Origin: an uncultured Gammaproteobacteria bacterium
GTDB taxonomy: Bacteria; Patescibacteriota; Microgenomatia; Levybacterales; UBA12049
DNA length: 64,000 bases
Assembly: GCA_964474445.1 (NCBI GenBank)
Contig: CAYYSJ010000004.1
Span: 185-64,184 of the forward strand
Reading direction: 5' to 3'
Positions 2,381-59,905 of this stretch are shown in pieces. A program made the position numbers and the translations under genes. The first letter of the stretch is position 1. Each line of letters begins with the position of its first letter. Under the pieces are notes generated by a model. The model was not told the origin of the DNA. It ran no database searches and worked only from the letters and a program-made list of their open reading frames with translations.

Positions 2381-2413
<33 letters not shown>

Positions 2414-3026: not shown

Positions 3027-3057
<31 letters not shown>

Positions 3058-13462: not shown

Positions 13463-14032
13463 ATGAAGTGGGTAGCTCTCGGAATATTGTTGGTAGTCAT
13501 TATTGGAGGAGGTATATGGATCTTTTCACCTGGTAAAGATGTTCTATCTTCACAGGATAAAACAAAAGCTTTGCAGACACTGCTTGGAAGGGATGTTCAT
13601 GTAGATGCACAAAATCCTCAGGAAGTAGCATGGACAATGCACACAAATCAGTCTGTTCAATTTTCCTACCCTTCAGATGCAAAAATATATACTCAAGATA
13701 ATAGTGCAGCAATGAAAAATAAAGATATGGTAGATAGCTTTTCTTTTAGTAATCTTACTGATCATGTGACAGCAGTTGTTCAGGTGGTCAAATTTACTGG
13801 AGCACTTATAGAATATCCCGCAGTAAATTTTCGAATTTCTCAGTCAACACTGTATACAGCGACAACCTCTGGTACTCAAACAATTCAATTTATGAAGAAA
13901 GATGACACAGCAGAAAAGTCACTCTTTTTGAAAAAGAATGCTACTATTATTAGCATAGCTGTAACTGGCTATTCTATGCAAAAAGTAGACAATTTATACT
14001 CAAGAATTATTTCTTCGTTGAAGACGTTTTAA
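13463..14032 (+). CDS. Hypothetical membrane-anchored protein
   Basis: N-terminal TM helix (ALGILLVVIIGGGIWIF) then 165-aa soluble domain; no motif recognised. Confidence 0.5.
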   Translation: MKWVALGILLVVIIGGGIWIFSPGKDVLSSQDKTKALQTLLGRDVHVDAQNPQEVAWTMHTNQSVQFSYPSDAKIYTQDNSAAMKNKDMVDSFSFSNLTDHVTAVVQVVKFTGALIEYPAVNFRISQSTLYTATTSGTQTIQFMKKDDTAEKSLFLKKNATIISIAVTGYSMQKVDNLYSRIISSLKTF

Positions 14033-14920
14033 GTAGTATTTTGCTCCTAAACCTCCGAATAGTACCAATGCTACAACAATAGGGATGAGCGGGAGACTCC
14101 CTTGAGAAAAGAACACAAATGTTTTTGTTAATCTCTGGTGAGACTTACCAAAATGAAGGGAAAGGGTTGCTGTATACATTCCTGGCCAAAGAAACGGCTT
14201 AAGCGTTCTTACAGAGACATAATATCCTCTGATGCTTTGTGGCAGTGTAGGAGCAGAGGCTGCATTTACCATTCCTTTTGCAACAATAGTATGAGAAGCA
14301 TCAGTTATTTCCAAAAGTCCATATGGTGTAAGATCGGTATCTCCAGAATTTGTAAATCGAAAATAGAATGTCGTAGGGAATTCGATAAGTTCTCTTTGTG
14401 TTTCAAATGATGGAAGACTTGCTGCTTCGTATTCCTTTCCTGTGTTGGTTCGGACAAAAAGAAGACTTCCTAATGTTCCTTGAATATGTATCTGTTGTAA
14501 TCCTTGTGTATATTGTTCCTTTATATGAGCAAGAATTGTTGCATAATGGCCACCAGGAGTTAACTTATCTTTGTCTATGAAGATAGTAATATTATTTGTC
14601 TCTCCAGGGTCAAGGATAAGTGAATTGTCACTAAAATGTATCCAAGACGAGAGACCGTATTGATAGTTTTGAAAATTTTTATCATCTAAGAAAGAAAGTT
14701 TGTAACCATTTTCAAGCGCAGTAACATCTTGGGCACTAAAGGTAAGCTCTAATGTTTGAGAAGAAGTGTTTTTATAGAAAAGCTTTGTTTGGGGTTGATC
14801 TGTTGCAAGATCTAAATGAATAATGGAAGGTGTAACTGAAATTGTTTGTTGTTGTGCAAAAGCTGGAGAGATCCAAAAGAGTAAACAAAAGATAAATAAG
14901 ATAGATATTGTCCATTTCAT
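14000..14920 (-). CDS. Membrane-anchored Ig-fold surface protein, DUF916/DUF3324 (CscA)-like
   Basis: Signal peptide, beta-rich body beginning '..ISVTPSIIHLDLATDQ…' (pattern typical of DUF916), single C-terminal TM + basic tail (PLIPIVVALVLFGGLGAKYYLKRLQRRNNS). Confidence 0.6.
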   Translation of the reverse strand: MKWTISILFIFCLLFWISPAFAQQQTISVTPSIIHLDLATDQPQTKLFYKNTSSQTLELTFSAQDVTALENGYKLSFLDDKNFQNYQYGLSSWIHFSDNSLILDPGETNNITIFIDKDKLTPGGHYATILAHIKEQYTQGLQQIHIQGTLGSLLFVRTNTGKEYEAASLPSFETQRELIEFPTTFYFRFTNSGDTDLTPYGLLEITDASHTIVAKGMVNAASAPTLPQSIRGYYVSVRTLKPFLWPGMYTATLSLHFGKSHQRLTKTFVFFSQGSLPLIPIVVALVLFGGLGAKYYLKRLQRRNNS

Positions 14921-15022: not shown

Positions 15023-16075
15023 CTATCTTTGCTGTTTTTTGACCTCGTGTGTAATATACCAGGAAAGAATAAATTTCAGAAACACACCTCCTAAAATAAC
15101 GACACCAAGGGTACTAAGCACAATAGTATAAGGAAATACAAAGAACGTTGTTGTTGCTTCAAGTGGGACATCTCGTGTGCCATTGTCATAGACAACAAGT
15201 GCAGATGCTGTATATTTACCTATACGAAAGTGAGTAAGCAAGTTCCAGTTAATGACTAAGTGTGTCATAACACGTCCATTTTTGTCGACTTTAGGAGACC
15301 CATCTTGCAGTATTGGCTCTTTTACAAAGAATCCATCTAACCAGCTTGTTTGAAATGTTCTCGTACTACCAGGTAATATAATACCGCTTTCTTTATTGAC
15401 GGAAAGTACTGCAGTATCATTTCCGGAGAGTTTCACAAAAATATTCCCAGTTGGCTTTATGTGCACATTTCCAGTATTTTGCAGTTGTACATTAAAGGTG
15501 ACTGGGAGATATTCGTTAAAGAAAGACGTTGGGATAAAAGAAACAAGTTTGAGTTCTGATTTTGCTTGTGAGGACGATACGTTGAGAAGAATTGGTAATA
15601 CGATTTGACCAAGAAGCTTTGTCCCAGGTGCATTTTGTGTGCCATTTGTTTTAGTAGGTCCAATACGGAGAGCATAGTAATAGCCAAAAGCAGCAGTCTT
15701 AGGAACAGTGATAGTAAAAGGCACATCAACCCATTCTTTTGGTTTGGCCGTAGGCGTTGCAGTCTCAAAGCTTATCCATGAGATAAAAGCATCATTAGGT
15801 TGGGCTGCAACAGGAACTACTTCACCGTTTCGTGCATGAGGGTCAAGTTTGTCAACAACAATAGAGAGAGCAATAGGATCATTAGTATTATTTCGGATTC
15901 TAAATTTTTGTTTCAGTACATCTCCAGGATTTGCCGTAAGATCTAAGAATGTTGGACTTATTGTGAGATTAAGCCCTTGTACTGATTGAGCAAATACATT
16001 TGCTTGCAAAAGAGAAAGAAACAAAAGGAATATGCCAATAAAAAAAATAGCAGTTCGTTTCATATCCTTAATCAT
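15023..16075 (-). CDS. Second membrane-anchored Ig-fold surface protein, DUF916/DUF3324-like (paralog)
   Basis: Signal peptide, 'LTISPTFLDLTANPGDVLKQKFRIRNNTNDPIALSIVVDKL', C-terminal TM anchor + KKQQR tail. ORF could start at 16114; start 16075 chosen from signal-peptide position. Confidence 0.6.
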   Translation of the reverse strand: MIKDMKRTAIFFIGIFLLFLSLLQANVFAQSVQGLNLTISPTFLDLTANPGDVLKQKFRIRNNTNDPIALSIVVDKLDPHARNGEVVPVAAQPNDAFISWISFETATPTAKPKEWVDVPFTITVPKTAAFGYYYALRIGPTKTNGTQNAPGTKLLGQIVLPILLNVSSSQAKSELKLVSFIPTSFFNEYLPVTFNVQLQNTGNVHIKPTGNIFVKLSGNDTAVLSVNKESGIILPGSTRTFQTSWLDGFFVKEPILQDGSPKVDKNGRVMTHLVINWNLLTHFRIGKYTASALVVYDNGTRDVPLEATTTFFVFPYTIVLSTLGVVILGGVFLKFILSWYITHEVKKQQR

Positions 16076-16171
16076 ATACACAATTACCATTTTTTTCAAA
16101 GGGGAAAATAACAAGTGGGAGAGTGGGCTCCCTATATAAGAAAGTGTGGTTAGATGTCATGTCCAATATGT

Positions 16172-17275
16172 CTAGAACTGTCCTGCTGCAGTAATGGTTA
16201 CAGTATCTGTATAATCACTTGCTGGTTTGGTTGTGGCAGAAGCTTCTGCTGAAAAGGTGAGTGTTGCCGTATTCCCGTTTGAAGGAACTGTGTTTGAGAC
16301 AATTTTTTCAAATTGGGTACTATCCAAAGATCCAACAGATGGACTTGATGTGCTGTATTCTGTTGCAACAGTTGGAGAACCACTTCCTGCTGCTACTGCT
16401 AATCCATATCCTGCAGCCCCAGTAAGGTTATGAATATTGCCCGCTCCTGCTGCAAATGCTCCACTGGAAATGGATGTATCACTTGTTGTTGCAGAGGTGA
16501 GCGTACTATTCGCATTAGCATTTTTAACCCATGCCGTCCATCCATTAGCTGCATTAGTACTGACAGTAAGTGTAATACCTGTTGCAGACGTTGGTGCCCC
16601 AGATGTAGTTAGCGTTCCAATTGCAGCTGTATTGCCACTCAAAGACATGGTGAAGCTTGCAGGGACAGTTGCTGTTACGGTAATTTGATCATTGGAAATA
16701 ACTGATGCTGCATAATTTGCCAACTCATTGGCAAGTTGGGTGCCACCACTATTATTTAACTGGATGGTGCCAATTAAATTATTTGCAGCAGCAGTTGGAG
16801 TGGTAAGTGTACTGGTTCCAGTAAAATGAAGACAGTAGGTTGTCCCTGTAGTAAGTGTTTGGCCTGTAGTCACAATAAACGTTACAATACCATTTGAAAC
16901 AGTTGATGTTGTAGCAGTCCCTGGGAATGCAGTTGTCCCAACAGGAATGTTCGTTGCTGTTGTATCCCATGTCCAGTTGGCCGCGGTTTGGTTTACCCCA
17001 AAGTGGGTAGCATCCGCTGTCCCTGGAGTGCCACTGACAGGAAAAGTAATTGCCATTTGCGCAACGTTGGTTGTTTCCGTTATATTCGGATTAAAACAGA
17101 CAGACCCTCCTGTCGCAGTGTTTATTTTTACCCTATCAAGACGGAAATATCCTTTTGCAACTGCACTTGCAGGAGTAGGAAGTAACAATGGTTCAAAAAG
17201 ACCAGCAGCAAGAACGAGTGAAAGAAAAATATGAGGAAGTTGCTTTTTTTGTATCTTGAGAATGGACAGTAATCT
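16172..17275 (-). CDS. Secreted Thr/Ser/Gly/Ala-rich pilin-like surface protein (C-terminal motif ASDYTDTVTITAAGQF)
   Basis: Signal peptide; ~40% T/S/G/A; C-terminal alternating beta-strand motif shared with 17353-18408 and 55442-56215. Confidence 0.6.
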   Translation of the reverse strand, partial: RLLSILKIQKKQLPHIFLSLVLAAGLFEPLLLPTPASAVAKGYFRLDRVKINTATGGSVCFNPNITETTNVAQMAITFPVSGTPGTADATHFGVNQTAANWTWDTTATNIPVGTTAFPGTATTSTVSNGIVTFIVTTGQTLTTGTTYCLHFTGTSTLTTPTAAANNLIGTIQLNNSGGTQLANELANYAASVISNDQITVTATVPASFTMSLSGNTAAIGTLTTSGAPTSATGITLTVSTNAANGWTAWVKNANANSTLTSATTSDTSISSGAFAAGAGNIHNLTGAAGYGLAVAAGSGSPTVATEYSTSSPSVGSLDSTQFEKIVSNTVPSNGNTATLTFSAEASATTKPASDYTDTVTITAAGQF

Positions 17276-17352
17276 CATGTAATAAGCATTACATACAAAT
17301 TGTTTAGTTGTCAATAGGGTTATTCGTATACTACTTATATATTAAGAAGAGG

Positions 17353-18408
17353 TTAGAAAACTGCTGTTGCAATGACAGTGATGATATCTACGTAATCGCT
17401 TGCTATTTTTGCATTAATGCTTGCTTTTGCTTGTAATTGAAAGGTGCCGGTCCCACTTGTAACAGGTAAACCAGTTGAATCAAAAACAGCACGCTTATTT
17501 ACATTATCAAGAATTCCAACGGTATTTCCTGAGCCATTATATGGAGAGAGAATTTCCATTGGTCCACCAGAACTTTGTCCAACTGAGGTTGCTTGCAATC
17601 CATACCCTTCGGAAGTTGTAGACAAATCGCTACTCACTGCTGCTATGGTATATCCTCCTTGTGATGAAAGAAGGCCTCCATTGGTATCATAAGCATAAAT
17701 AGTTGTTCCACCAGTTCCGTTGGTTGAAATAGTGGCGGTTACAGTACTTGTTGACGTTTTGACAGTTCCTGGATCGAGTTGAGGAAAAGTAAGTGCATTA
17801 CTATTTAAAGAAAACGAAAACGTAGGACTGCCTGTTGAAACAATTGTTGCTGGGCCATATGCAGATTGCGTATAGTTGCCTTGTTTAGCAGAAACACTGA
17901 CGGTGTATGTTGTGGAGGGTGTAAGTCCAATCATCGTGAATCCACTCGCCCCCCAAACAGCATTTGTCTGCCAGACAGGAGATGGTCCTAATGTACCATC
18001 TGCTTGCACATATTGTGTTGAGCTACTGACTACTTTAATTGCATACTGAGTGTCACTTGGGTTATTTGCAGTATTAAGCGTGACACTTAATGAGTTATAC
18101 AAAGTGCCGCCATTATTGGAAACGGTTGGTGCTCCTGGAACGTTTGCTGTTAGGAGGTATGTGAGACCTGGTTGATTTGTGTAGCTTGTTGAGTTGAGAC
18201 TTCCTCCATCTAATTGGCCAGTATTGCCAAACAAGGAATAGGTAGTAGATGTCGCACCGCTTATACCACCAGACCCGAAATCATATGCTTTTATTTCATA
18301 GGTTGTACTTTGAGGGCCGGCATCCATTTGTACTGGAGGGGTAAATAAATAGATGAATAAACCAAAAAGTAAATAAACTGTGATAGCTTTAGAAATAATA
18401 TTACTCAT
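17353..18408 (-). CDS. Secreted Thr/Ser/Gly-rich pilin-like surface protein (C-terminal motif ASDYVDIITVIATAVF)
   Basis: Signal peptide MSNIISKAITVYLLFGLFIYLF; T/S/G-rich; conserved C-terminal strand. Confidence 0.6.
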   Translation of the reverse strand: MSNIISKAITVYLLFGLFIYLFTPPVQMDAGPQSTTYEIKAYDFGSGGISGATSTTYSLFGNTGQLDGGSLNSTSYTNQPGLTYLLTANVPGAPTVSNNGGTLYNSLSVTLNTANNPSDTQYAIKVVSSSTQYVQADGTLGPSPVWQTNAVWGASGFTMIGLTPSTTYTVSVSAKQGNYTQSAYGPATIVSTGSPTFSFSLNSNALTFPQLDPGTVKTSTSTVTATISTNGTGGTTIYAYDTNGGLLSSQGGYTIAAVSSDLSTTSEGYGLQATSVGQSSGGPMEILSPYNGSGNTVGILDNVNKRAVFDSTGLPVTSGTGTFQLQAKASINAKIASDYVDIITVIATAVF

Positions 18409-18905: not shown

Positions 18906-18969
18906 AATGTTTCTAAATCAATATCAAATTTCTCATTATTGTAATTACCAAATTTTGCTTTTGCCTTGT

Positions 18970-43700: not shown

Positions 43701-46700
43701 CCTATCCCTACTTGCCCATTAATAAGTGCCATTGTTGAACTTCCTGCTCCTCCATTGGTGTTGAACAATAGGTGTTGACTTGTTCCCTGTACTCTTAAGA
43801 CTAAATCATTTGCAATTGTATCGGTTGAATATTGACCACCTGAAGTTGCTAGTCCAAGTAGTCCTTCTACTGTGCCAGAGTTGTCTATAGCTATTCTTGG
43901 TGCATTTGTTCCGTTGAGGGTGATACCGGTGGCTACAGTCGTTGTATTTATATATAAGCTGTCAGTTGGATTCGTTGTCCCTATACCAACATTTCCTGCA
44001 ACGACAAGAGATGTTCCGGATGCTGCTGGATCTAAGAAGTAATTGGTGTTCTGTAAATCTTTAAATGAGGATGCTGTGATAACACCAGTATTACTTAATA
44101 TAAACTGTGTTGCTCCAGATGCTGAAGCTGTCATGATATCTCCTGCACCAGGCTGGTTAACCGTGATTGCTGCATTAACTCCTGTTGTATCTATGTTAAG
44201 AATAGTATTCCCAGATGCATTCTGAAATTGCATTGCAGTTGGGGAGTTGACAAGGGAGCGGGAGAGAAGATTACCATTACTATCAACTCGGAATGCGTCA
44301 GCAAATCGAGCAGAAGAGGTTGCTCCAAAAGCAAGATTATCAAGTCTTGTTGAGAGTTGATTTGTCACTCGAAGGACAGAGTCAATATTCACATTAGACT
44401 GGGTAAGATTTGTGCCAAATGGATTGTAGGACGATGCAAGAACTTCTTTGAGAAGGGTATCTTGTGTTTCCATCCACGTGTTTCCTGATCCTGCATTATT
44501 GGATCCGATAATAAGTCCTATGCCATTGCCATAGGATTGGCCAGCAGCAATACTTTGAACAAAATTATTATTGACACTTGTACTCCATGCTGTACCAACA
44601 TCGTCTTTAGTATTGATAGAAGTTGAATATAAGTCGGTTACTGTATCTGAATCAAGCCCAATAACAGAAACACCCCCGCCTTGAGTGCCGACATAAAGCT
44701 GACCGTTCTGCATATTTGCAGCAACTGCTGAAACATTGGAGTTTCCGTTTGCCAATTTCTGATTTGAGTCTGCTCCTGTTACAACTCCTCTGATTGTTTT
44801 ACTGGTATGATTTTGTAAAGCATGATATCCAACTTGATACATATGGATAATTGCTGAAGGAGTAAGAGCACTTGCTTTCACAAATGGTCCATCGATAGAG
44901 CCAGTAAACTTAGTTGATCCATCTCCGCCTGCCCCAATGCCGAAATTAGCTGTCCCAACTACAATAGAGCCTGAGGTTGTGAGCGAGCCAGCTAGGATAC
45001 CATCCCGATAGAGTTTGAAGGTTGTTCCGTCGTATGTTACCACAGCAAAATGCCAGTTATTATCATTGGACGTTTGAGTATCATCAATAATTCTTGTGCC
45101 TCCATTATTGATGGCTGCTCTCAGTTTACCAGCAGCAAGATCACCAATAGACAAAAGGTATGCAGGGGTTATTGAAGAGCCATCCCATTTAGTGACAATC
45201 CTTCCAGTGTTACCACTTGTTTTGTACCATGCTCCGTAAGACCAGGTCGTACCTCCAGAGTCAAGCTTAGATGCCCCTCCACAAGCAGCATTAGTACAAG
45301 ACAAATAAGCGGTTGACCCGTCAAACGTTAACGCTGTCCCCCTCACACCTGATGCAGAATAGGTAACCGATCCATTTGCCGTAAGGGTGATGCCTTTGAC
45401 TGATGCATCGTTGATATTTCCTGATGTTTCGTTGAATGGCCACATCCCACGTGTATCTCCCACCATATCATCAGTAATATAGTTACTGTTGTAGTACTTT
45501 ACAGAAGCGTTGGTTGGATCTCCTTTCTTGAGCTGGAAAGCCATAACAGATCCATTACTACCTTGAGCTCCAAGATAGACAGTATCAGAGATGCCATCGA
45601 CGATTGATGTACCTTCTGTCACAACCATAGAAGTTGGAACAAAGGTTGCGGATGTACTTGCAGGCCCGGCAGTCAAGGAAAGGGAAGAGAAAGTATTATT
45701 ATCTGTTGTTGTTGCACCATAATTTGTTGTTCCACCCTGATTAGCATAAACCTCATCAAAAAGAGTGTTATTGCCAGAACCATTCTGTGCGTTGTACTTA
45801 ATCTTTAAAGCATAGTTAGAAGCAGTCGATGAATTACCAACAGTGGCATATAATGTTCCTCTTGAGGTAAGCCAGACATTTTGAGCATTAGCATTTGGAC
45901 CGAAGTTGGCAACAAGGCTCAGTAGTGACTCATTAATAAGCGTAACAGCTCCATTAGTGCCACCGGCCGTTGCAAGGACAATATACGTTTGACCATTTAT
46001 CACGTTCACTGCCACATCATTGATGGTTGCATTTGGTGTATTGAGATAGATATTAGGCATCAAAGTGTAGGTTGTTGTGCTATTTCTTCCTGAGATGTTG
46101 GTATTTGAATTCACAAAGTATTGTCCAGCATTACTGGAAGATAGGATCTTATAAGAAGTATCATGCTTGAAATCAATAACGTAGAAGCCTCCTACTGAGC
46201 CATTATTCCCAAAGTAAATTTCTCCATTAAGAGCGGCAATACTGGAGCCAGTAGAATTAGTGGTTGGACCAATCATTTGCTCGGTTGCTCCAGAGCCTTT
46301 GTTAAATGCCATCCATAAAGAATTATCTTTTGCATCAAAAATATATAAATTAGTTGTGGTGACGACGAGGATTGCTTTTCGTGGGAAAGCCTGCTGGCCA
46401 CATCTGGTATTTGTCCCAATAACACAGGTATCAGCTGTGGTTCGAGACTCGTTGTACCAAGAAGATGCGGGAGCCTTGTCATCATTTGTCCAACGACCAC
46501 CATCTGAGTCTTTTGAGGTATCATAGAAAAGAACTTTTTGGATATTTGAAATACTTTGGAGATTTTTGTGCCCACCAATAGTGAGGTCTCGATTATCAAG
46601 AGTCATGTATGAATGATCTGATGAGGCAACATTAATAACCTTGCTCGCAGCAGGGAGAACTCCTGCATTGTTATTAACTTTTGGATCATTTGGTGTAATC

Positions 46701-49700
46701 GCAACAGTTCCAATATTGACGCCTGATCCAAATACCTGGAAATGAGCAGAGGCAGTTGAATTACCCCCTATTACTAAGTCATTGTTTGTGTTTGAAGGAG
46801 CAAGTACGCCACCATTGGAAAGTTGCCAGAATCCAGCAATACCGCCATTGGCAGGAGTGACAATTTGTCTGACATAAAGAGTATTCCACTCTTTACCGCC
46901 TTGTGTTGGATCAGAGCCTAAATTATAGGTATCTGTTACATTTGGAATAAGACTATTTTTAATAGTACCGTCATTAGCAATGGTAAAAAGAGGAGTTCCG
47001 GATGTAGATGCAGTAAAGACGTCTCCTAGCCCAGATTGATTAACAACAAAGGTCGCATTGCCAAGAGAGTTCTTTGAAATAGTAAGCCCACTTGAAGCAA
47101 GGGGGGATGTTGTCCCTATTCCAACACTACCACCGTTATTGATGTATAAGCGACTAGCATTATTTAGTACATCATAAATATTAAAGTAGTCAGCAGTTGT
47201 ATTTGGGTCATACACTTCAAGTTTAAATCCACGGAACTGATTGTTTTGTGGGGATATACGTATTGACCCATAATTATCTGTTACTGGTCTTTGTCCGATT
47301 ACAAGGTTATCAAAATTAGGATCAATAGTACTGGCTGTTGCTGATATTATCGCTTGCCCTCGAACATCAAATTTTGCACCAGGGGCGTTTGTCCCAATGC
47401 CAATATTACTGCTTGCTGCAAGGAAGAGAGATGGAGTGGAAAGTGTTATTCCTTTATCTCCACCAACTGAATTATAGAAGGCAAGAGTACCGCCATTAAG
47501 GGAGTTAACTGCAGTTGCAGAGCCTCTAAAGGTTATATTTCCTGATGTACTTGCTGTTCCAGCTGGAACTGTTCCTAAGTCATTTGTATAGGAATTGCTA
47601 AAGATTTGGAACTTTGCAGAAGAAGTAGACGTCCCACCAATTGCTAGGTCATCGGTAATAGTAAATGGTGAAACAACCTGATTAAACCTCTGCCAGAGAC
47701 CATCATAAGTCCCAGATATAAAAAGATTTGTGATGTAGGCTGAGCCAAAGTTGTTTGTTGCTGAGCCTAAGTTAATAGTTGCAGCGGTTGGAATAATACT
47801 ATTTGAGAATTGGCCATTTGGGAAAATAGTATTTGTACCTGATGAGCCAAGGATGAGATTTCCTCTAAAGGTATTTGTTCCATTTGCATTTCCCAGATTT
47901 ATTCCATTTGTTGCCCCTCCACCGATATTAAGAGTAGTTGCTGTAGTATCAAAGAGCCCAACTGTGCCTTGAGTTGTTTTAATATTTGCACCACCTAATG
48001 TGAGGTCCCCATTGTTATTCAACTGAAGCTGAGTTGTGAGGCCACTATCACCACCCACTGAAGTTTGAACTTTCAAGATACTACCGTTTAATAAGTTAAC
48101 ATTAGTCATTGCTCCTCTAAAGGAAAGTCCTCCGGATGAGGTGGCTGTGCCTGCTGTGTTGATTCCTTGGGTGGTGGCAAACACTTGCCAAGGAGTGGCA
48201 GAGCCTGTTGCGTTACCACCGACTGCTAAGTCATTCCATGCGTTGACGGGGGAGAGGACGTTACTTGTTAATTGCCAGAACCCTGATGTTCCACCGCCAA
48301 CTGGTGCAATGAAGTTATTTGCATAGACAGTTCCCCAATAGTGAGTTGGATCACCAAGGTTAATCGTTGTTGATGAAGGTAAAACATTCTGGTTAACCAG
48401 GCCGTTGATGGTTACTGTGTTGCTTGTATTTGTTCCTAGAGTAGTATTCCCATTCACAGACAAAGCTCCTTGCACTGTTGTTGTTCCGCTTACATTGCCA
48501 ATATTGAGTGTTGTTGCTGCTCCACCAAAGGTGATTGAGGTTGGAGTACCAAAGAGTGTGAGTGTTGAACGATTATCATCAATAGTTGGTGTTCTAAAGG
48601 TTGTCGTTCCCGTTGTTGCACCAATCGTGAGTGTTGATGCAGAACCTGCAAAGGTAAGATTAGATGGAGTCCCAAGTAGAGTAAATACACTTGTTGTTGT
48701 ATCAAGAGTTGGTCCATTGACTATGACATTGCCAGTAGCATTATGAGGAGTAAGAGTAATATCACCTGTTGTGCTCCCGCCAACTGTAAGGTTTGCAAAG
48801 TTCGCTGTCTGAATGGTTCCATTTGCTGTTATATAGGTAGAATTTCCGTTCAATCCGCTTGAAACAGATGCAGTTGGTGTTCCAGATCCTATCATGTTCA
48901 GGACAGCAAATTTTGCGGAATTGGTTGCGCTGCCACCAACAAACAAATCAACTGTGCTATTAACCGGATAAATTGCACCGTTAATAGTATCAAGCGTCCA
49001 CCAGCTTCCATTTGTTCCAGTACCGCAACTTCCCCAAGTAGGATTTGCTCCACCAATAAGACATTGGTTCGTTCCTCCTGTTGGTGTTTGTTTAAACAGT
49101 CCAGTAGTATCTGCGTAAAGAACACCACCATTATTGGTATAATTTGTAGATAAAATAGCCCCAGAGTTTTGGAGTCTGAATTTGGTTGTACCAGAAGATG
49201 AGGCCGTTAATAAATCGCCAGCAGAATTCAAAACATTAATAATTACCCCTGCATTTCCTAACGTATTCTTTTCTATATCTAAAGCAGTTGCAGTAAAAGG
49301 TGCAGCTCCAATCCCAAGTGTTCCAGTAATTTGTGATGCCCCAGCACCATTGACATTAAGTGTCCCAGCAATTTGTGATGTTCCCGTACCGTTGACAGTA
49401 AGTACTCCTGCAATGGTGAGAGCACCAGCATTGGTAATCTTATTTGAAGAACTGAAAAATTGGATGTCTCCTCCTGTTGTATTTGTGCCAAGCGTGATTG
49501 TTCCTGTTCCGGCTAAGATAGCAAGAGTATTATTGCTTGTTGTCGTAATTGTTGGATTCGTACCGGTAAGAGCAACCGTTGCAGCAGCAAGGCTGACTGT
49601 TCCTAACCCATTATTTGGTGAAAGGGTAATACCACCAGTTGTATTACCTCCAATGGTAAGTGGCAAACTATTCGTTGTTTGGACACTGCCTGTAGTGTTA

Positions 49701-52862: not shown

Positions 52863-53747
52863 ATGAAAAAGTATTTTGTTGTCCTGCTTTTGCTTGTCCT
52901 ATTTTTAGGAGTATCACCCCAAAATATATCTGCTGATACATCCTCTGGTAGTGGACAAGTAATTGTTAAGGTGAGTATCAATGGGTTTACTTTCAGCCTT
53001 TCAGGTTATCTTGCTCCATATGCTTCTATAACGCTTACCAGCAATGGGAATGTTTTTGCTTCGACAACTGCGGATGCTCAGGGAAACTTTTCCTTCCCTT
53101 CAGTCAAAGTTGCAAAAGGATTCTCTCTGTTTTGCCTTGATGGTATTGACTACAAGAGGCTTGGAGAATCTGAAGCATGTTTTACGATTCCTCCAGTCAT
53201 AGGCCCATTCAGTAAATCAGCAATTTTCTTACCTCCAACACTTGGCGTTTTTCGTAGTGATGTAACTATCGGGGATAATGCTCTTGTCTTTGGATATGGT
53301 ATGCCAAATGCGCTTATCAGCATTAAGTTAGACAATAGGGTCATTTGTGAGAAAACAGCCGACTCAGGAGGATATTATGAGTGTAATTTTGCAATTAGGA
53401 AAGAAGGAAATCATGAGGTGTATGCAGATTCACGCTTGAATGGTAAAGCTTCTGAACCTCAGCTTAAGCGAGTTATTATTAAAGGAGTATCTCTAACAAA
53501 AGTGACTCCTACTCCGTCTCTGGGCAACATTATTGATATTCTCCATGGGTTACCAGGTATCTTGATTGCCCTCTTTATTGGTCTTTTGCTTATTATCCTC
53601 CTGATTATTCTCCTCAGACGTCGTAACCCCTCATGGTTACCTCGAGTATTTCTTCCAAAACCTGGAGACCTTATCCATCATGGGTGGGATAGTTTTTTTA
53701 GAGAAAGGAAGCTGCACCACTGGTGGATGAAAGGAGTAGGGTACTAG
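52863..53747 (+). CDS. Surface protein with Ig-like (carboxypeptidase-regulatory/Big-like) domains and C-terminal TM anchor
   Basis: Signal peptide; 'ASITLTSNGNVFASTTADAQGNFSF', 'ALISIKLDNRVICEKTADSGGYYE' beta-sandwich repeats; TM 'ILIALFIGLLLIILLIILL' + RRRNP. Confidence 0.6.
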   Translation: MKKYFVVLLLLVLFLGVSPQNISADTSSGSGQVIVKVSINGFTFSLSGYLAPYASITLTSNGNVFASTTADAQGNFSFPSVKVAKGFSLFCLDGIDYKRLGESEACFTIPPVIGPFSKSAIFLPPTLGVFRSDVTIGDNALVFGYGMPNALISIKLDNRVICEKTADSGGYYECNFAIRKEGNHEVYADSRLNGKASEPQLKRVIIKGVSLTKVTPTPSLGNIIDILHGLPGILIALFIGLLLIILLIILLRRRNPSWLPRVFLPKPGDLIHHGWDSFFRERKLHHWWMKGVGY

Positions 53748-54450
53748 TATAAATAGCTACAGTAGTTTGTTTAAGCTAACAAGAATGCATGTGAAGAATC
53801 GTCTAGCTTATAAAAAGGGATCTAGATAGAAGAAGTGTGGGAAAGTAGACGATTATAAGGGACAAATAGTAAGTTCTACAAGAGCAATATGATGGGAATT
53901 AGACATATTAGGTTGTTTGATACAACGAAATCAACAGACAAAACTTTATTCTTATGGGACTATTTTAAATCTTAAAATTTTTTTCACAAGGTTGTTGAAC
54001 ATCTACGTATGAAATCCATTAGAAGGAGTTTGAAATAAGCCAGCTCCAGAGAATTTCACACAATGGCAATCTAAAGTACAGAAATGAAGCGATTATCACT
54101 AAGGCAATAACCCTGCTAATCTTATATGTCAATAACTATATAAACGTATCGAAATGCATCATGAAAAATGAAATGTTACAGGGTGTTTGCATCAGTTAGA
54201 CATTAACCAATCTTGAGTCTATCTCCAAGTTACTGATTTTTCTGTCTCATAATCAAGCTTTTGTTGCTTGGTAATAAGGTCTAGAGAGACTCTAGCTCAA
54301 GAGATGAATGCTTTTAGTTTTATCAAAAGTAGCCAGGTGAGAGTTATCCTATCTTCATTAGAAATCTTGACTGAACTCGTTTTGCATAAGTAGCAATGTG
54401 AGCGTCTATATGAAGCACATTATTATATATGTATTATATGCTTGCTAGCC

Positions 54451-55437
54451 TTATTCTGCAGACTGTTTCATACGTCTTTGCACACGAGTAAAAAGGAATA
54501 TGCCAACAGTAAGAAGCAAGATTATTCCAATCATGTATTGAATCGGTAAGGCAAAAAAATAGATTGTCCGGTGAAATAACGGCCCTTGTGGCGAAAGTGA
54601 GACAGTGAGTGTTGCTGTGTAAGGTCCGAAAAGAAATGTTTCAGGCCATACAGCTTTATTCTCCAGGAATTGGTGCGTGTCTTGAAGGCTCCGCGAGGAG
54701 TTAGAAAGGATATTTTGTTGCAGTAGGTCGACCTTTCCTATCAGTTGACCATAGAGATTGCGAATAAGTATCTGGCCTTGGGGTGCAATGTAGTAGGAAC
54801 TAAGATTGTGGACAATAACAGTGAAAGGAATTGGACCATTGGTCACATAGAAAGGAGCACCAAACTTTTCAATAAAGCCACGTGCTGTATCTTTAGGCCC
54901 TATCGAGAGAAGAACATTACTGGCAATGCCTCCGGCAATTGCTGAGCCTGTTGTACTTGTTTTAGCTGTTTTTGAGAGAAAGACAATTGAAAAGTAATAA
55001 TCAGCAGGTGGTTCATCTTTTGGAAGACCAACCTTAAGAGTAAGGGCTTTTTCTTCCTGGGGATCAAGAGTAACCTCATTCACGGCTGTATCACCATCAA
55101 GTACCTGAATTTTTTGAAAGATATCCTTATCTCTTAAGATAAAGTCTTTTTCGTCTACAAATCCCACATGTCCAAGGCTATCCTTAGCAGTAAAAGGGCG
55201 AAGAGTGATAGAAAGAGTTACTGGCGTATCAGCCCTATTTGTAATCGTAACAGGGTGTTTAATTGCAGTTGGGGGAGTCGCGTCAACTTGGATAATAGGA
55301 GGAAAGACACCCAAAGAGAGAGTTTCAGCGTGAGCAAAAGAGGTAAGAGGAATGAAATAGAAAATCAGTAACAGGAAAGATGCTGTGGATATAAACAGGT
55401 CGCTTCTTTTACTCATAAGTTTTAACTTCTTATTCAT
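54451..55437 (-). CDS. Membrane-anchored Ig-fold surface protein, DUF916/DUF3324 (CscA)-like (third paralog)
   Basis: Signal peptide, 'LSLGVFPPIIQVDATPPTAIKHPVTITNRADTPVTLSITLRPFTAKD', C-terminal TM 'YMIGIILLLTVGIFLF' + TRVQRRMK. Confidence 0.6.
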   Translation of the reverse strand: MNKKLKLMSKRSDLFISTASFLLLIFYFIPLTSFAHAETLSLGVFPPIIQVDATPPTAIKHPVTITNRADTPVTLSITLRPFTAKDSLGHVGFVDEKDFILRDKDIFQKIQVLDGDTAVNEVTLDPQEEKALTLKVGLPKDEPPADYYFSIVFLSKTAKTSTTGSAIAGGIASNVLLSIGPKDTARGFIEKFGAPFYVTNGPIPFTVIVHNLSSYYIAPQGQILIRNLYGQLIGKVDLLQQNILSNSSRSLQDTHQFLENKAVWPETFLFGPYTATLTVSLSPQGPLFHRTIYFFALPIQYMIGIILLLTVGIFLFTRVQRRMKQSAE

Positions 55438-55441
55438 AAAT

Positions 55442-56215
55442 CTAAAATGTAGGGATGGCTATATAGGTAATAGTGTTTGTATAAGTATCAGGTTGTTGAG
55501 AAGCCGAAACGTTTACCTTGTAGGTCACTTGGGACTGACTACCTGTTGTTCTAGTTGTTCCATTCATGACTATCTGAGCTGGTTTTCCTATTCCAGCATT
55601 GGCAAATGTTTTATAAAAGTTCGTTGTATTAAAGTCAGGAGTGCAATCAGTACCAACAACATTATCACAGCGATATCCAAATCCGTAAGTAAGTATATTT
55701 ACCCAGGTGGCTGCTGTCACATCGCTACACAAGCCACTATCGCATGTTGTATCAGGGATAAAGGAGTTGGTTGCTGTAAGAGGATTATTTTCACGAGCAT
55801 TTACTGTATAGGTAAAAGGTTGGCTACCACTTACTGTCAGCGTGTTGGTACGACTGACAGGGCTTGTTGGGTCAATTGATCCAAAATCAATGGTTGTCGG
55901 GTTAACAGTGAATGTAAACGTTGGTGTCCCACTTGGACTTCCTGATGATGTTTGGTTACAAAAAATTCCCCCATAAAATCCTGCACAAATTTTATAGTTT
56001 GTTCCCGTGAAAAGGCCAGGAGCTATCTCTCCTGATGTAAAGGTGAGCTTATTACCGCTCCCACTCACTTGTCCTGCTATGGAGTTGAAATTACCAAGAG
56101 TGATAATAAAGAAATCATTAGCCATACGAAACGCAAGTGCAACTTGCGTAATAGACAAATAGATCAATAGGCATATAAACGAGTGAAAAAGGAGAATGGG
56201 CAGGAATTTTTTCAT
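55442..56215 (-). CDS. Secreted Thr/Ser/Gly-rich pilin-like surface protein (C-terminal motif PDTYTNTITYIAIPTF)
   Basis: Signal peptide; T/S/G/N-rich; conserved C-terminal strand as in 16172-17275 and 17353-18408; 4-bp gap to downstream DUF916-like gene. Confidence 0.6.
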   Translation of the reverse strand: MKKFLPILLFHSFICLLIYLSITQVALAFRMANDFFIITLGNFNSIAGQVSGSGNKLTFTSGEIAPGLFTGTNYKICAGFYGGIFCNQTSSGSPSGTPTFTFTVNPTTIDFGSIDPTSPVSRTNTLTVSGSQPFTYTVNARENNPLTATNSFIPDTTCDSGLCSDVTAATWVNILTYGFGYRCDNVVGTDCTPDFNTTNFYKTFANAGIGKPAQIVMNGTTRTTGSQSQVTYKVNVSASQQPDTYTNTITYIAIPTF

Positions 56216-56232
56216 AGCATTTGTATAGCTGA

Positions 56233-56868
56233 TTATTTCTGTGCTTCTTGACGAAGGTCTTCTGTCTCTTCTAAGATCTCATTTAACTTTTCAACATCAG
56301 CTTCTTTTAAGTTTTTTTTCTCATTTTTCATAACATCCTCTACATCATGAGAAATCGTATCTGCTGCTTCAGTACTTCTTTCCTGAAGCTGTTGTATCTC
56401 TTCTTCTTGTTGCTCTCGATCCCTATATTCTTTGCCAAAAAAGTAGGGAAGTGGAGAAATAAAAAGGAATGATCCAAGCTGAATATAGGTACCAAGAGAG
56501 CCTCCATTTTTGAGGATTTCAGGCACAAACATAGCAATAGTTAAGAGAGCATACACAAAAACTGTTTCAGGCTCAAAGATAAACGTAATACCAAATCCTA
56601 AGAAGTAGAGTAAAAAGAAAAACCAGCTTGTCATTTGGCCGGTAGCATAGATCAGGAGAAAAATAAGAGTATTAAGGATAAAGATATCCGGAATTCCTCC
56701 CGCGAAGGTATCTTTTTTCTGTTTATGACGTATAAAAGAGAGTATAATATAGGCGAAAACGAGCCCAGCTAAGCCCTGGATAATATACTGATTGAGAAAT
56801 GTCTGTTCCCAGATGAAAACAACCACGAAAGAGCATAGTAAGACAAATACATGCAAAAGGAGTTTCAT
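56233..56868 (-). CDS. Polytopic membrane protein with acidic coiled-coil C-terminus
   Basis: 5-6 TM helices then 'EQQEEEIQQLQERSTEAADTISHDVEDVMKNEKKNLKEADVEKLNEILEETEDLRQEAQK'. ORF extends to 56928; ATG 56868 (MKLLLHV) chosen. Confidence 0.45.
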   Translation of the reverse strand: MKLLLHVFVLLCSFVVVFIWEQTFLNQYIIQGLAGLVFAYIILSFIRHKQKKDTFAGGIPDIFILNTLIFLLIYATGQMTSWFFFLLYFLGFGITFIFEPETVFVYALLTIAMFVPEILKNGGSLGTYIQLGSFLFISPLPYFFGKEYRDREQQEEEIQQLQERSTEAADTISHDVEDVMKNEKKNLKEADVEKLNEILEETEDLRQEAQK

Positions 56869-57075
56869 ATAGTGATAGTAGTGGATTTTGGAGACAGAGA
56901 CAAGAGTAAAGAACTGAGATGAGGTCAAGATTCAATAGATCAGAAAAACAGAACCGTTTTTGTAAAAGGAGACTCACGATTTTTTAAAAGTAAACCTCTT
57001 TTCGCCCTTTAGTTGCGATAAGTCCTATAATTCAAAAATTATTTTCCCATAGTAATTATGAGAAATGAGGCTATC

Positions 57076-57104
57076 TTGACAGTGTGGAGGTTGGTGCCTA
57101 TAAT
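57076..57104 (+). promoter_or_regulatory. Consensus sigma70-type promoter (TTGACA-17 bp-TATAAT) upstream of leuS leader
   Basis: ttgacaGTGTGGAGGTTGGTGCCtataat: both hexamers match consensus exactly with 17-bp spacer. Confidence 0.65.
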
Positions 57105-57187
57105 CTCCTCATGGCACAAGAATCTTTTTCACATTCTTTTGAGCTCCTTTTTGGGGTGATGAGTTAGTGGGAGAGAAAAGAAGTTTT

Positions 57188-57213
57188 CGACCCCGTTAAT
57201 CGGGGTTTTTTAA
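57188..57213 (+). terminator. Intrinsic terminator/attenuator hairpin inside leuS 5' leader
   Basis: gaCCCCGttaatCGGGGtttttt ~80 nt downstream of promoter and ~110 nt upstream of leuS ATG. Confidence 0.55.
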
Positions 57214-57322
57214 TAATATTGTCATTGTGAGTTGCCTAAGGGAAGGGGTTTATCTTCATTGCCACCTTTGGATTAACTTAGGACTTCTCGCCATGACAAA
57301 GAGAGGATGCTATACTTGGACT

Positions 57323-59905
57323 ATGGCAAAACAGATAAAAAATCAGATTCCAAAATTTAATCCTGCAGAAATAGAGCCTAAGTGGCAGAAAGTCTGGATT
57401 GAGGCAAAGACCTATGAGCCTGATATGAATAAGGCAGAAAGGCCTTTCTACAACCTTATGATGTTCCCATATCCTTCTGCTGAAGGATTGCATGTCGGGA
57501 ATGTGTATGCACAGACTGGAAGTGACATTCAAGGAAGATTTCAGAGAATGCAAGGAAACGATGTCTTTCAGCCTTTTGGACTGGATGGCTTTGGTATCCA
57601 TTCAGAGAATTATGCCTTAAAAGTTGGCAGGACACCTCAGGAACACGCTGTAATATCTGAGAAGAATTTCTATCGTCAAGTTCACGAGACAGGTTCTGGA
57701 ATGGCATGGGATGAGAAGGTAGAGACCTATGATCCTAACTATTATAAATGGACGCAATGGCTCTTTATTCAGTTGTTTAAGGCAGGCCTTGCCTACCGGA
57801 AGAAAGCTCCTGTAAATTATTGCCCTTCTTGTAAGACAGTTTTAGCTGATGAGCAAGTAATTGATGGCAAGTGCGAGAGATGTGGGACTGTCGTTGAGAA
57901 ACGCAATCTTGAACAATGGTTTTTTAAGATAACAGATTATTCAGAGAGACTTCTCAATAATATTCCGGGGCTTGATTGGTCTGAAAAAGTGAAAATTGCC
58001 CAAACAAATTGGATTGGGAAGAAAGAAGGAATTGAAATTACCTATCCGATTGAAGGGACAGACGAAACGGTAACTGTATTTACGACTCGTCCAGATACTA
58101 ATTTCGGAGCAACCTTCTTGGCACTTGCTCCTGAGCATCCTTTGGTGAAAAAAATTACTACTCCAGACCACAAAATAGATGTTGATCAATACATGAAAGA
58201 GGCAGCAAAAAAATCAGAGATTGAGCGTCAAGCAGAGGGCAGAGAAAAAACAGGTGCCTTTACTGGCGCCTATGCCCTCAATCATCTCACAGGCTACAGA
58301 ATGCCTATTTGGGTCTCTGACTTTGTTTTGGTTGGCTTTGGAACAGGGGCATTAGTCGGTGTTCCTGGGCATGACATGAGAGATTTTGAGTTTGCACAGA
58401 AGTTTGATCTTGAAATAAAAAGAGTTGTTGTTGGGAAAAATGGTGATACATCTCCAATTACCCGAGCAGAACAGGTGCAGGAAGAAGAGGGAACAATGAT
58501 CAACTCAGATTTCTTAAACGGGATGAATATTCACGATGCAACAGAGAAGATTATGGATGTCATGGAAGAAAAAGGTTGGGGCAAAAGAATTTCAACCTAC
58601 CATCTCAGGGATTGGTTAATATCACGACAGCGTTATTGGGGCCCTCCAATTCCAATGATTTATTGTGAAAATTGTGCAGCAAAAGGAATTGTTTATGATA
58701 CAAATGAGCTTGCAGAGGAGCGTGGTATACAAAGGCCTGAATTGCCAGGTGGTATGGCTGGGTGGTTCCCAGTGCCGGAAAGTGAATTACCTGTTCTATT
58801 GCCTGAGACAGAAAACTGGAAGCCAACAGGGACTGGTCAGTCTCCTTTGGCTCAAATTCCGGAGTTCTGGCAGACAACCTGTCCAAATTGTGGAGGTCCA
58901 GCAAGACGAGAAACTGATGTCTCAGATACTTTCCTAGATAGCGCATGGTATTTCTTTAGATATACTTCAACGGACAAAGAGCATGAAGCCTTTGATGTGA
59001 AAAGAGTAGAGAAGTGGATGCCAGTTACACTCTATACTGGCGGAGCAGAGCATTCAGTGCTACACCTTCTGTATGCTCGATTTGTTACGATGGTTCTGAA
59101 AGATTTAGGCTATATTAGCTTTGAAGAGCCATTTGCTAAGTTTAGAGCACATGGTCTTATCATTAAAGATGGTGCAAAAATGAGTAAGTCAAAGGGAAAT
59201 GTTGTTATACCAGATGTATATATTAAGAAGTTTGGAGCTGATACATTACGATCATATTTGATGTTCTTGGGGCCATTCTCTCAGGGTGGAGATTTTTCTG
59301 ACAATGGTATTGAAGGCACGCACAGATTCCTTAGGCGTGTCTGGGTAATGGTTCAGGATTATATGCAGTCAGAAGAAGAGGGAGAAATCAGCAAAGAGCG
59401 TGAATTCATACTCAATAAAACCGTGAAAAAAGTAACAGAAGAGATGGAAGCTCTAAGATACAATACAGCAATTGCAGCACTTATGGAGTGGTATAACTTC
59501 TTGAGTCAGGAAGTAAAAAGTATGAATCAAGAACTAAACAGAAGAGAGATTGAAGCATATGTCAAATTGTTGGCACCAATTGCTCCTCATATGACAGAAG
59601 AACTATGGCAATTACTCAGAGTAAATACTGTAGAAGAGCATGATGTAGACTTTGAATCAGTTCATCAAACTCCTTGGCCAAGTTATGATGAGTCACGGCT
59701 TGTCTCAGATACTATAAATATCGTGATTCAGGTGAATGGTAAGGTGAGGGCAACAATGACAGTCTCAGCTCAAGATTCACAAAACCAAAAGAAAGTTGAG
59801 CAGCTTGCTGAAGCTAATGAAAAAATTGTGGGATGGATTAATGGAAAAACAATGAAACAAGTTATTTTTGTTCCTCAAAAGCTGATTAACTTCGTTGTGG
59901 CCTAA
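57323..59905 (+). CDS. leuS: Leucyl-tRNA synthetase
   Basis: HIGH-region 'PYPSAEGLHVGNVYAQTGSDIQGRF', KMSKS 'KMSKSKGNVV', CP1 editing domain, class-I anticodon-binding domain; ATG at 57323 (ORF opens at 57227). Confidence 0.93.
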   Translation: MAKQIKNQIPKFNPAEIEPKWQKVWIEAKTYEPDMNKAERPFYNLMMFPYPSAEGLHVGNVYAQTGSDIQGRFQRMQGNDVFQPFGLDGFGIHSENYALKVGRTPQEHAVISEKNFYRQVHETGSGMAWDEKVETYDPNYYKWTQWLFIQLFKAGLAYRKKAPVNYCPSCKTVLADEQVIDGKCERCGTVVEKRNLEQWFFKITDYSERLLNNIPGLDWSEKVKIAQTNWIGKKEGIEITYPIEGTDETVTVFTTRPDTNFGATFLALAPEHPLVKKITTPDHKIDVDQYMKEAAKKSEIERQAEGREKTGAFTGAYALNHLTGYRMPIWVSDFVLVGFGTGALVGVPGHDMRDFEFAQKFDLEIKRVVVGKNGDTSPITRAEQVQEEEGTMINSDFLNGMNIHDATEKIMDVMEEKGWGKRISTYHLRDWLISRQRYWGPPIPMIYCENCAAKGIVYDTNELAEERGIQRPELPGGMAGWFPVPESELPVLLPETENWKPTGTGQSPLAQIPEFWQTTCPNCGGPARRETDVSDTFLDSAWYFFRYTSTDKEHEAFDVKRVEKWMPVTLYTGGAEHSVLHLLYARFVTMVLKDLGYISFEEPFAKFRAHGLIIKDGAKMSKSKGNVVIPDVYIKKFGADTLRSYLMFLGPFSQGGDFSDNGIEGTHRFLRRVWVMVQDYMQSEEEGEISKEREFILNKTVKKVTEEMEALRYNTAIAALMEWYNFLSQEVKSMNQELNRREIEAYVKLLAPIAPHMTEELWQLLRVNTVEEHDVDFESVHQTPWPSYDESRLVSDTINIVIQVNGKVRATMTVSAQDSQNQKKVEQLAEANEKIVGWINGKTMKQVIFVPQKLINFVVA

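Follow-up and report, generated by a model that had tools for sequence, protein, structure and literature searches.

A putative divergent Pam-type fibre module beside leuS in Levybacteria genomes

Contig CAYYSJ010000004.1 of the GenBank assembly GCA_964474445.1 is deposited as an uncultured Gammaproteobacteria bacterium and carries a GTDB lineage within the Levybacterales (Patescibacteriota; Microgenomatia; UBA12049). We analyzed a stretch of 64,000 nucleotides of this contig (positions 185 to 64,184 of the forward strand), hereafter the window. The window stems from a Levybacteria genome (class Microgenomatia, candidate phyla radiation (CPR)/Patescibacteria) and contains, at 56868-54451, an operon of three genes, here called M, B and C. 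The interpretation that we favor, and regard as reasonably probable, is that they form a minimal and divergent fibre module of the Pam type, which would dispense with an usher and rely on chaperone-assisted donor-strand exchange. The genes, with lengths in amino acids (aa), are:

56868..56233, minus strand: M, polytopic membrane protein of 211 aa with an acidic tail
56215..55442, minus strand: B, secreted, minor pilin-like protein of 257 aa with the C-terminus ...PDTYTNTITYIAIPTF
55437..54451, minus strand: C, membrane-tethered protein of 328 aa with a C-terminal transmembrane (TM) helix

The open reading frame (ORF) of M extends back to a TTG at 56928, while the ATG at 56868 is the start found both in homologues and by an independent gene call on an identical contig; such contigs occur in the samples SRR12266073 and SRR31070047. 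M is the first gene of the operon and is separated from B by 17 bp, and only 4 bp lie between B and C ('TAG attt ATG', the stop of B followed by the start of C). Because the gaps are this short, they indicate that M, B and C are co-transcribed. All three minus-strand ORFs had been placed at these coordinates by an initial annotation, and they hold. Promoter and terminator predictions in 53600-57400 were not more numerous than in shuffled sequence, and an Rfam scan at the gathering threshold detected no RNA element within or beside the operon. There is no sign of horizontal transfer, as the GC content is uniform (37-43%) over the region and the window.

The arrangement is widely conserved. Searched against 1.84 billion representatives, a profile of B retrieves 1790 clusters (50% identity; E<=1e-3), and relatives of B are encoded in 209 GTDB species-level genomes. 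Synteny was followed in 80 fetched loci, where the denominators count those with enough flanking sequence. B is immediately followed by a C-family gene in 70/72 loci and immediately preceded by M in 63/69, while leuS is found divergent upstream, with comEA/comEC beyond, in 57/61. The trio thus keeps its order in about 70 species-level genomes, with identities of 40-75%, which bears out the initial view of a functional unit instead of chance.

Relatives also show what the window has lost. In 28/53 loci C is followed by X, a further pilin-like gene of 465-485 aa, usually together with Y, a further paralogue of C (for example, L004 9833-12229 and L006 11939-14408). From this synteny of the relatives we infer that the ancestral operon was M-B-C-X-Y; the lineage of the window and its nearest relatives (L005, L008, L010-L012) have kept only M-B-C and lost X and Y. 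In the locus L007, the C orthologue (residues 1-324) and an X-type pilin are continuous in a single ORF of 791 aa (10907-13282), the result of a true gene fusion or else of an artefact (assembly or frameshift).

All informative titles among the homologues read Levybacteria/Levyibacteriota, Microgenomates or 'Patescibacteria group'. Dozens of GTDB representative metagenome-assembled genomes (L008, L010, L013 and others) that are titled 'uncultured Gammaproteobacteria bacterium' carry the locus together with CPR-type neighbors; these titles are evidently generic mislabels from a bulk submission.

The B protein begins with a Sec signal peptide (..VALA|F), continues with a conserved N-terminal segment of about 60 aa and ends in an immunoglobulin (Ig)-like domain of about 160 aa (approximately residues 98-257). 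Four cysteines (C158, C163, C183 and C191) are invariant in the family, and its terminal strand follows the pattern YxNxITYIAxPTF. No Pfam family was found for B. In NCBIfam (release June 2026), residues 105-257 cover positions 2-148 of the 148 positions of CPR_Pam_pilin_C (NF058581; E 6.9e-5, 23 bits), and residues 13-156 align with positions 9-141 of CPR_pilus_PamT (NF058579; E 1.1e-3, 18.5 bits). The pilin model is matched by 28/28 sampled family members (best E 3.7e-13, printed scores of 21-42 bits, all below the curated cut-off of 55 bits) and additionally by ten more distant cluster representatives. The PamT model, an equivalog with a curated cut-off of 240 bits, is matched by 23/28 members (best E 8.9e-14) with scores far under that value. 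Judged by these profiles, B is PamT-like in architecture, but not a PamT equivalog.

The predicted structure leads in the same direction. An AF2 model based on a 28-sequence alignment shows an all-beta C-terminal domain (residues 100-257) with a confidence score (pLDDT) of mostly 80-94. When this model is compared to the PDB with Foldseek, the matches are almost all donor-strand filament subunits, with the TasA fibre on top and a list that includes the PapG pilin domain bound to PapD, CS20, CsuE, CfaB, Csu, FimG/F, PapA and the Sulfolobus 0406 filament. The initial description of B as pilin-like is thereby well founded, as its C-terminal domain spans the whole Pam pilin model and its best fold matches are donor-strand pilins. 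Directly before this domain lies a stretch with the family consensus NYKVRAGFQY, whose alternating hydrophobic pattern is that of a beta-strand and which could be a donated strand. Sequence searches of the PDB with the profiles of B, C and M returned nothing meaningful; structures of Pam pilins seem to be either absent from the PDB copy searched or too distant for a sequence search. A phage tail-protein origin of B was also considered and is unsupported, as a Foldseek comparison with viral predicted structures gave no match at E<=1e-3.

C is modeled by AF2 with a mean pLDDT of 90 and consists of a signal/anchor helix, two beta-sandwich domains (residues 42-179 and 187-296) and a TM helix (299-327). 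Its Foldseek matches in the PDB fall into three groups: Vibrio cholerae RbmA is first by E-value (1.3e-10), Enterococcus faecium WxLIP is found as 9i1y (2.6e-10) and, bound to a WxL protein, as 9i25 (~2e-10), and the chaperones of chaperone-usher systems CfaA, CsuC, Caf1M, DraB, SafB and FimC follow at 3e-9 to 1e-6, with YadV listed too. Superposition is best on the chaperones (TM-score 0.5-0.58 on target, root-mean-square deviation 8-9 A) and poor on RbmA (0.25/0.34, 15 A). Regarding sequence, 29/31 family members match the Pfam family WxLIP_PGBD (= DUF916, PF06030) with their N-terminal domain at E<=0.01 (best 1.1e-9), while the window protein itself reaches 17.1 bits at a cut-off of 27.3. 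For the second domain, the Pfam scan of window protein and family gave no match to DUF3324. The start of the mature protein is strongly conserved (SLGIxPPIxQ).

The label 'DUF916-like with a C-terminal TM helix', which C had been given at the outset, is therefore apt, all the more as WxLIP of E. faecium is among its top fold matches. The role of an anchor that went with it is probably wrong. C has the architecture of a two-domain FimC/PapD-like chaperone with an added C-terminal TM helix, for which it can be likened to PamC and PamD as these are described. Its modeled fold and inter-domain arrangement fit a PamC/PamD-type, membrane-tethered PapD-like chaperone at least as well as an anchor.

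M contains about six hydrophobic segments and a coiled-coil-like acidic tail of about 65 aa. An alignment of 21 orthologues reveals the invariant residues S81, Y88, L90, P100, P139 and F143 and the conserved motifs TGG..S.LFFLLYFL.FG and GS..LISPL.YFFG. Neither the window protein nor the 21-member family could be assigned to a Pfam or PDB family; scattered matches to DUF6057, Peptidase_M50 and Wzy_C, in 1-5 of the 21 members each, were regarded as noise. By hydropathy and the positive-inside rule, the tail would be cytoplasmic. Together with the synteny, this would tentatively cast M as a platform or anchor in the membrane whose tail faces the cytoplasm.

Related genes occur at a second place of the window, 36 kb away, where they lie on one strand in the order P1, P2, D1, D2:

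17353..18408, minus strand: P1, 351 aa, N-terminal SxNYx[IL] segment, fn3-like middle domain and pilin-type C-terminal domain
16172..17314, minus strand: P2, two-domain pilin-like protein of ~368-380 aa, whose gene call starts 12 codons into the ORF; candidate shaft pilin
15023..16114, minus strand: D1, chaperone-like protein paralogous to C, TM helix at the C-terminus
14000..14920, minus strand: D2, likewise chaperone-like and paralogous to C, TM helix at the C-terminus

The window therefore holds three pilin-like and three chaperone-like genes in total. In translation, the C-terminal strand of all three pilin-like proteins conforms to [ST]-D/T-Y-x-[DN]-x-[IV]-T-x-[IT]-A-x-x-x-F, a shared motif that had been noted earlier; the strand is DTYTNTITYIAIPTF in B, SDYVDIITVIATAVF in P1 and SDYTDTVTITAAGQF in P2. 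P1 has a weak fn3 match, and its C-terminal domain is found by the hidden Markov model (HMM) of the P2 family with 2.1e-20. Neither P1 nor P2 of the window matches CPR_Pam_pilin_C, but an orthologue with 51% identity to P1 aligns with positions 11-79 of the PamT model at 7.4e-12.

How closely are the two modules related? Comparisons with 500 composition-preserving shuffles per pair give z=7.2 for the C-terminal domain of B against P2 and z=6.5 against P1, with the observed score reached by 0/500 shuffles in either case, and z=13.6 for P1 against P2. For the chaperone-like proteins the values are z=15 (C and D1), z=15 (C and D2) and z=8.5 (D1 and D2). Pairwise BLAST is marginal for B and P2 (26% over 169 aa, at both C-termini, E 0.04 in a tiny database), while C finds D1 and D2 with E 2.5e-7 and 1e-6 at ~23% identity. 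Profiles extend these relationships. A C-family HMM built without D1 and D2 recovers both over their full length (2.2e-22 and 1.8e-10), and hhalign aligns the C-terminal domains of the B and P2 families end to end (E 1.8e-5, probability 78%). The X family, whose C-terminal domain covers the whole Pam pilin model with 20-34 bits, bridges the two (E 7.6e-12 and 97.5% with B; E 8.3e-9 and 95.8% with P2), and the Y family matches the C family with E 3.4e-86. By these comparisons, C, D1, D2 and Y form one homologous family, and B, X, P1 and P2 form another in their pilin-type C-terminal domains. No mutual similarity was detectable between the N-terminal halves of the three pilin-like proteins B, P1 and P2 (shuffle z<0.2).

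The initial annotation had called the M-B-C region a second copy of the cassette at 14-18 kb. What remains of this is the common order of a pilin-like gene followed by a TM-anchored one and the homology of these parts, which exceeds compositional bias in the C-terminal domains of the pilin-like proteins only and extends over the full length of the three DUF916-like proteins. The best reading of the sequences is that the two modules belong to the same kind of system and are ancient paralogues, not duplicates, because the chaperone-like proteins are only ~23% identical, B shares no more than its C-terminal domain, M has no counterpart at 14-18 kb or paralogue anywhere in the window, and the order M-B-C-X-Y differs from P1-P2-D1-D2. 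As a whole, the unit of pilin-like and DUF916-like proteins proposed at the start is real and recurrent, but it is an ancient paralogue instead of a copy, and tethered chaperone is the more likely role of what was called the anchor.

An S-x-N-Y-x-[IL] pattern, repeated three times, occurs at the mature N-terminus in both the B family (55916-56215) and the P1 family (18109-18408). As a shared motif this was dropped, since the direct shuffle comparison gave z=-0.2 and that of the B-family consensus with P1 only z=2.7. Both families do match the N-terminal part of PamT, with P1-type proteins of the relative L091 (3933-5018 and 8895-9950) aligning with model positions 3-79 at ~5e-12, and a PamT-like N-terminal element in both modules is no more than a lead.

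Relatives help to place the modules with respect to each other. In a distant relative, on a Levybacteria contig of 608 kb, they lie ~30 kb apart, compared to 36 kb in the window, and in no fetched locus are genes of the P1, P2, D1 or D2 type found beside B. Across relatives there is roughly one chaperone per pilin. The neighborhood of the 14-18 kb module is likewise kept, with a giant protein, an HTH_17 gene, a 138-aa gene, the pilins, two chaperones and a gene of 190-200 aa on the opposite strand; a 780-aa protein stands beside it in one of the two relatives examined, as it does in the window.

The closest known counterpart are the Pam filaments, which a preprint describes (bioRxiv 10.64898/2026.03.03.709456). 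They are the thin filaments of Ca. Mycosynbacter amalyticus, a CPR bacterium; they have been solved, with PamA/B identified from the density, and polymerise by donor-strand exchange. The pam operon encodes the pilins PamA/B, PamE and the single-domain tip pilin PamT, and has no usher. PamC and PamD are two FimC/PapD-like chaperones, each with a C-terminal TM helix, and PamR is an RbmA-like, TM-anchored protein proposed to terminate and anchor the fibre. The accessions are WP_260763287.1 (PamA), WP_260763280.1 (PamB), WP_260763289.1 (PamT), WP_260763277.1 (PamC), WP_260763284.1 (PamD) and WP_260763282.1 (PamR). Conserved cysteine pairs are reported for PamA/B, and a conserved 'tail fibre-like protein' lies near pam operons. 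The homologues described there are restricted to CPR, mainly Saccharimonadia and Microgenomatia, a range that matches that of our homologues; those of the Microgenomatia were found only by a language-model search, at ~21% similarity.

The correspondence with the window is broad. Both systems are restricted to CPR and export all components by Sec; both have an Ig-like C-terminal domain of the pilin type with conserved cysteine pairs and a conserved last strand, a single-domain PamT-like subunit beside two-domain pilins, and two-domain PapD-like partners held by a C-terminal TM helix. In both, usher, sortase and ATPase are absent from the locus and a giant tail-fibre-like protein is nearby. The components of the window fit this scheme, with B as PamT-like, C, D1 and D2 as PamC/D-like or one of them PamR-like, and P1 and P2 as multi-domain pilins. 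The differences are equally clear. The window belongs to the class of the Levybacteria and not to Saccharimonadia, its genes are divided between two loci at a distance of 36 kb, each pilin being matched by one chaperone-like gene, and its M-B-C operon has no shaft pilin and opens with the polytopic M. Pam genes lie beside those of ATP synthase, whereas the operon of the window is next to leuS/comEA/comEC.

Other systems share parts of this picture. In the WxL/WxLIP clusters of Firmicutes, WxLIP (DUF916-DUF3324-TM) comprises two Ig-like domains and a TM helix and is predicted to insert a hairpin into its WxL partners (PMC10599100, published in 2023; PDB 9i1y, 9i25). Like C, it is a TM-anchored protein with a first domain of the DUF916 type that is encoded beside secreted partners, binds them, as is thought, by beta-strand insertion, and belongs to an envelope without outer membrane. 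In contrast to these clusters, the partners in the window have a Pam-type pilin domain instead of WxL domains, C shows no DUF3324 signal in its sequence, and for WxL systems no polymerisation is proposed in PMC10599100. Chaperone-usher pili (Pap, Fim, Caf1, Csu, CFA/I) resemble the window in the folds of chaperone and subunit and presumably in donor-strand complementation followed by exchange. They differ in that the window has neither outer-membrane usher nor periplasm, its chaperone is tethered and its shaft subunits have two domains. None of the window sequences matches a PapD or fimbrial Pfam family above cut-off. An usher family is absent from the Pfam scans, which covered 33 of the 38 window ORFs of at least 130 aa (every non-nested one, the other five being nested in longer ORFs), and from the Pfam marks of neighboring genes in relatives.

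TasA fibres, archaeal threads and the Sulfolobus 0406 filament are polymers that also form by strand complementation without usher. TasA is the top PDB match of B and 0406 is on its list, but the TasA match is weak (E 1.6e-3, TM-score ~0.33). To our knowledge, none of these fibres needs a dedicated two-domain chaperone. The sequences rule out sortase pili and type IV pili, whose defining signals are absent. The ends of B (...IPTF), P1 (...TAVF) and P2 (...AGQF) show no LPXTG motif, hydrophobic stretch or charged tail, and no sortase was found among the scanned window ORFs. B has neither of the two marks of a type IV pilin, a signal peptide of class III (G|F/M-T-L-x-E) and a hydrophobic helix at the mature N-terminus; its signal is of the ordinary Sec type and its mature part is all-beta.

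Taken together, how might the module work? Sec signal peptides are seen on all components, by inspection of the translations and as N-terminal helices in the AF2 models, so B would be exported by Sec and its signal peptide removed. Its C-terminal domain would be an incomplete Ig-like pilin domain, which C, as the equivalent of PamC/PamD, might hold by beta-strand complementation while its own C-terminal helix keeps it in the cytoplasmic membrane. The complementing strand of C would then be swapped for that of a neighboring subunit. By analogy to Pam and chaperone-usher systems, such complementation and exchange would lead to a filament. The two loci may cooperate, and B might join fibres made of P1 and P2. 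Because of its single-domain, PamT-like architecture, B is most likely a minor subunit (tip, initiator or base) and not a shaft pilin; since it is highly conserved and paired with M, a basal or initiating role is as plausible as one at the tip. The shaft would be built from two-domain proteins, which in about half of the relatives would be X with its own chaperone Y directly downstream. For the genome of the window, the candidate shaft pilins are P1 and P2 with the chaperones D1 and D2, 36 kb away. M, co-transcribed with the others, could tentatively serve as membrane platform or anchor of the module.

Several observations weigh against a Pam-type fibre. With 23 instead of 55 bits for the pilin domain and 18.5 instead of 240 bits for PamT, B remains below the curated cut-offs, the P2 family matches none of the Pam models, and neither C nor any other chaperone-like protein is recognized by an NCBIfam model. 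For B, Foldseek gives weak matches (E 1.6e-3 at best, TM-score on target 0.35-0.55), and its conserved N-terminal segment (residues 25-90) is modeled with low confidence (pLDDT <50). B is also more conserved (45-75%) than the shaft pilins (~40%), which is unusual for a tip that binds a host. The first fold match of C by E-value, RbmA, is the template given for the anchor PamR, and the available part of the Pam preprint mentions no polytopic protein like M (bioRxiv 10.64898/2026.03.03.709456).

Some of these points lend themselves to other explanations. C could bind and present B through an inserted beta-hairpin, as in WxL/WxLIP (Csc)-type display, with B a monomeric adhesin or binding protein that forms no polymer. 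The DUF916/WxLIP_PGBD domain of the C family, the WxLIP structures among its top fold matches, one of them WxL-bound, and the hairpin insertion proposed for WxLIP (PMC10599100) all speak for such a display, as do the loss of X and Y from the locus and the high conservation of B. We nevertheless consider it unlikely. B, P1 and P2 show no Pfam match to a WxL domain at E<=1, and B, with a single Trp, cannot carry the dual WxL (Trp-x-Leu) motif. The second domain of C is not recognized as DUF3324, and the C-terminal domain of B matches the Pam pilin model and donor-strand pilins, with no WxL chain among its top 50 PDB fold matches. The pattern of one chaperone per pilin and the two-domain pilins likewise suit a fibre and not a display.

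A different assignment within the same Pam-type system would make C a PamR-like terminator that anchors the base of the fibre, in keeping with its initial label of an anchor, and B the subunit next to the membrane. It draws on the RbmA match, on the C-terminal TM helix that PamR has as well, and on the strongly conserved mature N-terminus of C, and a basal element would suit the conservation of B and the adjacent M. However, PamC and PamD are TM-anchored too, according to the preprint (bioRxiv 10.64898/2026.03.03.709456), C superimposes far better on chaperones than on RbmA, and C, D1, D2 and Y are one family whose number tracks that of the pilins, as would be expected of cognate chaperones; on balance this assignment appears rather improbable. 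That there is no functional unit at all, and that unrelated Thr/Ser-rich secreted proteins and Ig-fold membrane proteins are alike by composition and adjacent by chance, can practically be discarded. BLAST of B against P1 or P2 alone is indeed not significant (E 0.013-0.04 in the tiny database) and the N-terminal halves differ, but chance is refuted by the shuffle scores (z=6.5-15), the profile links through X (7.6e-12 and 8.3e-9), HMM matches down to 2e-22 and the synteny in ~70 genomes.

For CPR bacteria, a life attached to host cells is assumed, which makes surface fibres likely organs of contact. The Pam pilus was identified only in 2026 and in one cultivated species of Saccharimonadia; Levybacteria carry a strongly conserved relative of it that stays below the thresholds of current models. 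This amounts to an annotation gap, as these proteins, where named at all, are almost always 'hypothetical protein' and many are nameless. The three-gene core beside leuS is recognizable in at least ~70 of the 209 species-level genomes with a relative of B, and alignments of B, C, X/Y and P2 could seed broader HMMs for annotation. M is a new candidate component of the system, and the chaperone-like proteins of CPR become linked to the DUF916/WxLIP family of Firmicutes. No new principle is involved, since the proposed mechanism is already published for Pam pili. The system is a variant that lies below both NCBIfam cut-offs, in another CPR class and at two loci, with an extra membrane protein and a compact, leuS-linked core.

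A bolder version of this idea is a long shot: M-B-C would be a self-contained minimal donor-strand module throughout the Levybacteria, and the acidic coiled coil of M would couple assembly, anchoring or turnover of the fibre to the cytoplasm, as a membrane-embedded substitute for usher or PamR. DUF916/WxLIP and the Pam chaperones would then be one ancient family of tethered pilus chaperones of monoderm envelopes. If true, the job of M would have no parallel in known donor-strand systems.

Downstream of the operon and convergent with C lies one more gene for a surface protein:

52863..53747, plus strand: E, secreted protein of 294 aa with Big_6 (Pfam 1.7e-7), a TM helix near the C-terminus and a short basic tail

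E, encoded on the strand opposite to the operon, is a frequent but not universal companion (36/53 relatives) that may belong to the system. A PamR-like or chaperone-like role for E was rejected, as hhalign gives only 0.3-3% probability against the chaperone and pilin families.

Two large proteins each adjoin one of the pilin/chaperone modules, as their counterparts of up to 7095 aa do in relatives:

40763-52327, minus strand: giant protein of 3854 aa with two N-terminal Phage_int_SAM domains, Laminin_G_3 and long Gly/Thr/Ser-rich repeats
19472-22705, plus strand: protein of 1077 aa that has the block AGRxPxxVSTxNGPIxxGDxxTSSNIxG... in common with the 3854-aa protein

In relatives, it is again a giant protein with N-terminal Phage_int_SAM domains that follows the B locus. 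The P1-P2 module is separated from the divergent gene of the 1077-aa protein by a 91-aa HTH_17 gene (excisionase/MerR-like) and a 138-aa gene without assigned family, both on the minus strand (18489-19245). The pair, which holds the same position in relatives, may be a local regulator.

Upstream of leuS we noted a perfect sigma-70 consensus, TTGACA-17-TATAAT, on the plus strand (57076-57104) and, shortly ahead of the start of the leuS coding sequence, a hairpin resembling a terminator (57189-57207). Both may be parts of a leuS leader or attenuator; no Rfam family, such as a T-box, reached its gathering score there. Introns with homing endonucleases are common in the ribosomal RNA (rRNA) genes of CPR bacteria. 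At its very start (1-3184), the window contains a partial 23S rRNA gene, which covers only model positions 1001-2925 yet spans 3184 nucleotides, or ~1.26 kb more than expected from the model. An ORF within it (1014-1547, plus strand) encodes a LAGLIDADG endonuclease (E 3.8e-22), and the extra sequence looks like an rRNA intron with a homing endonuclease.

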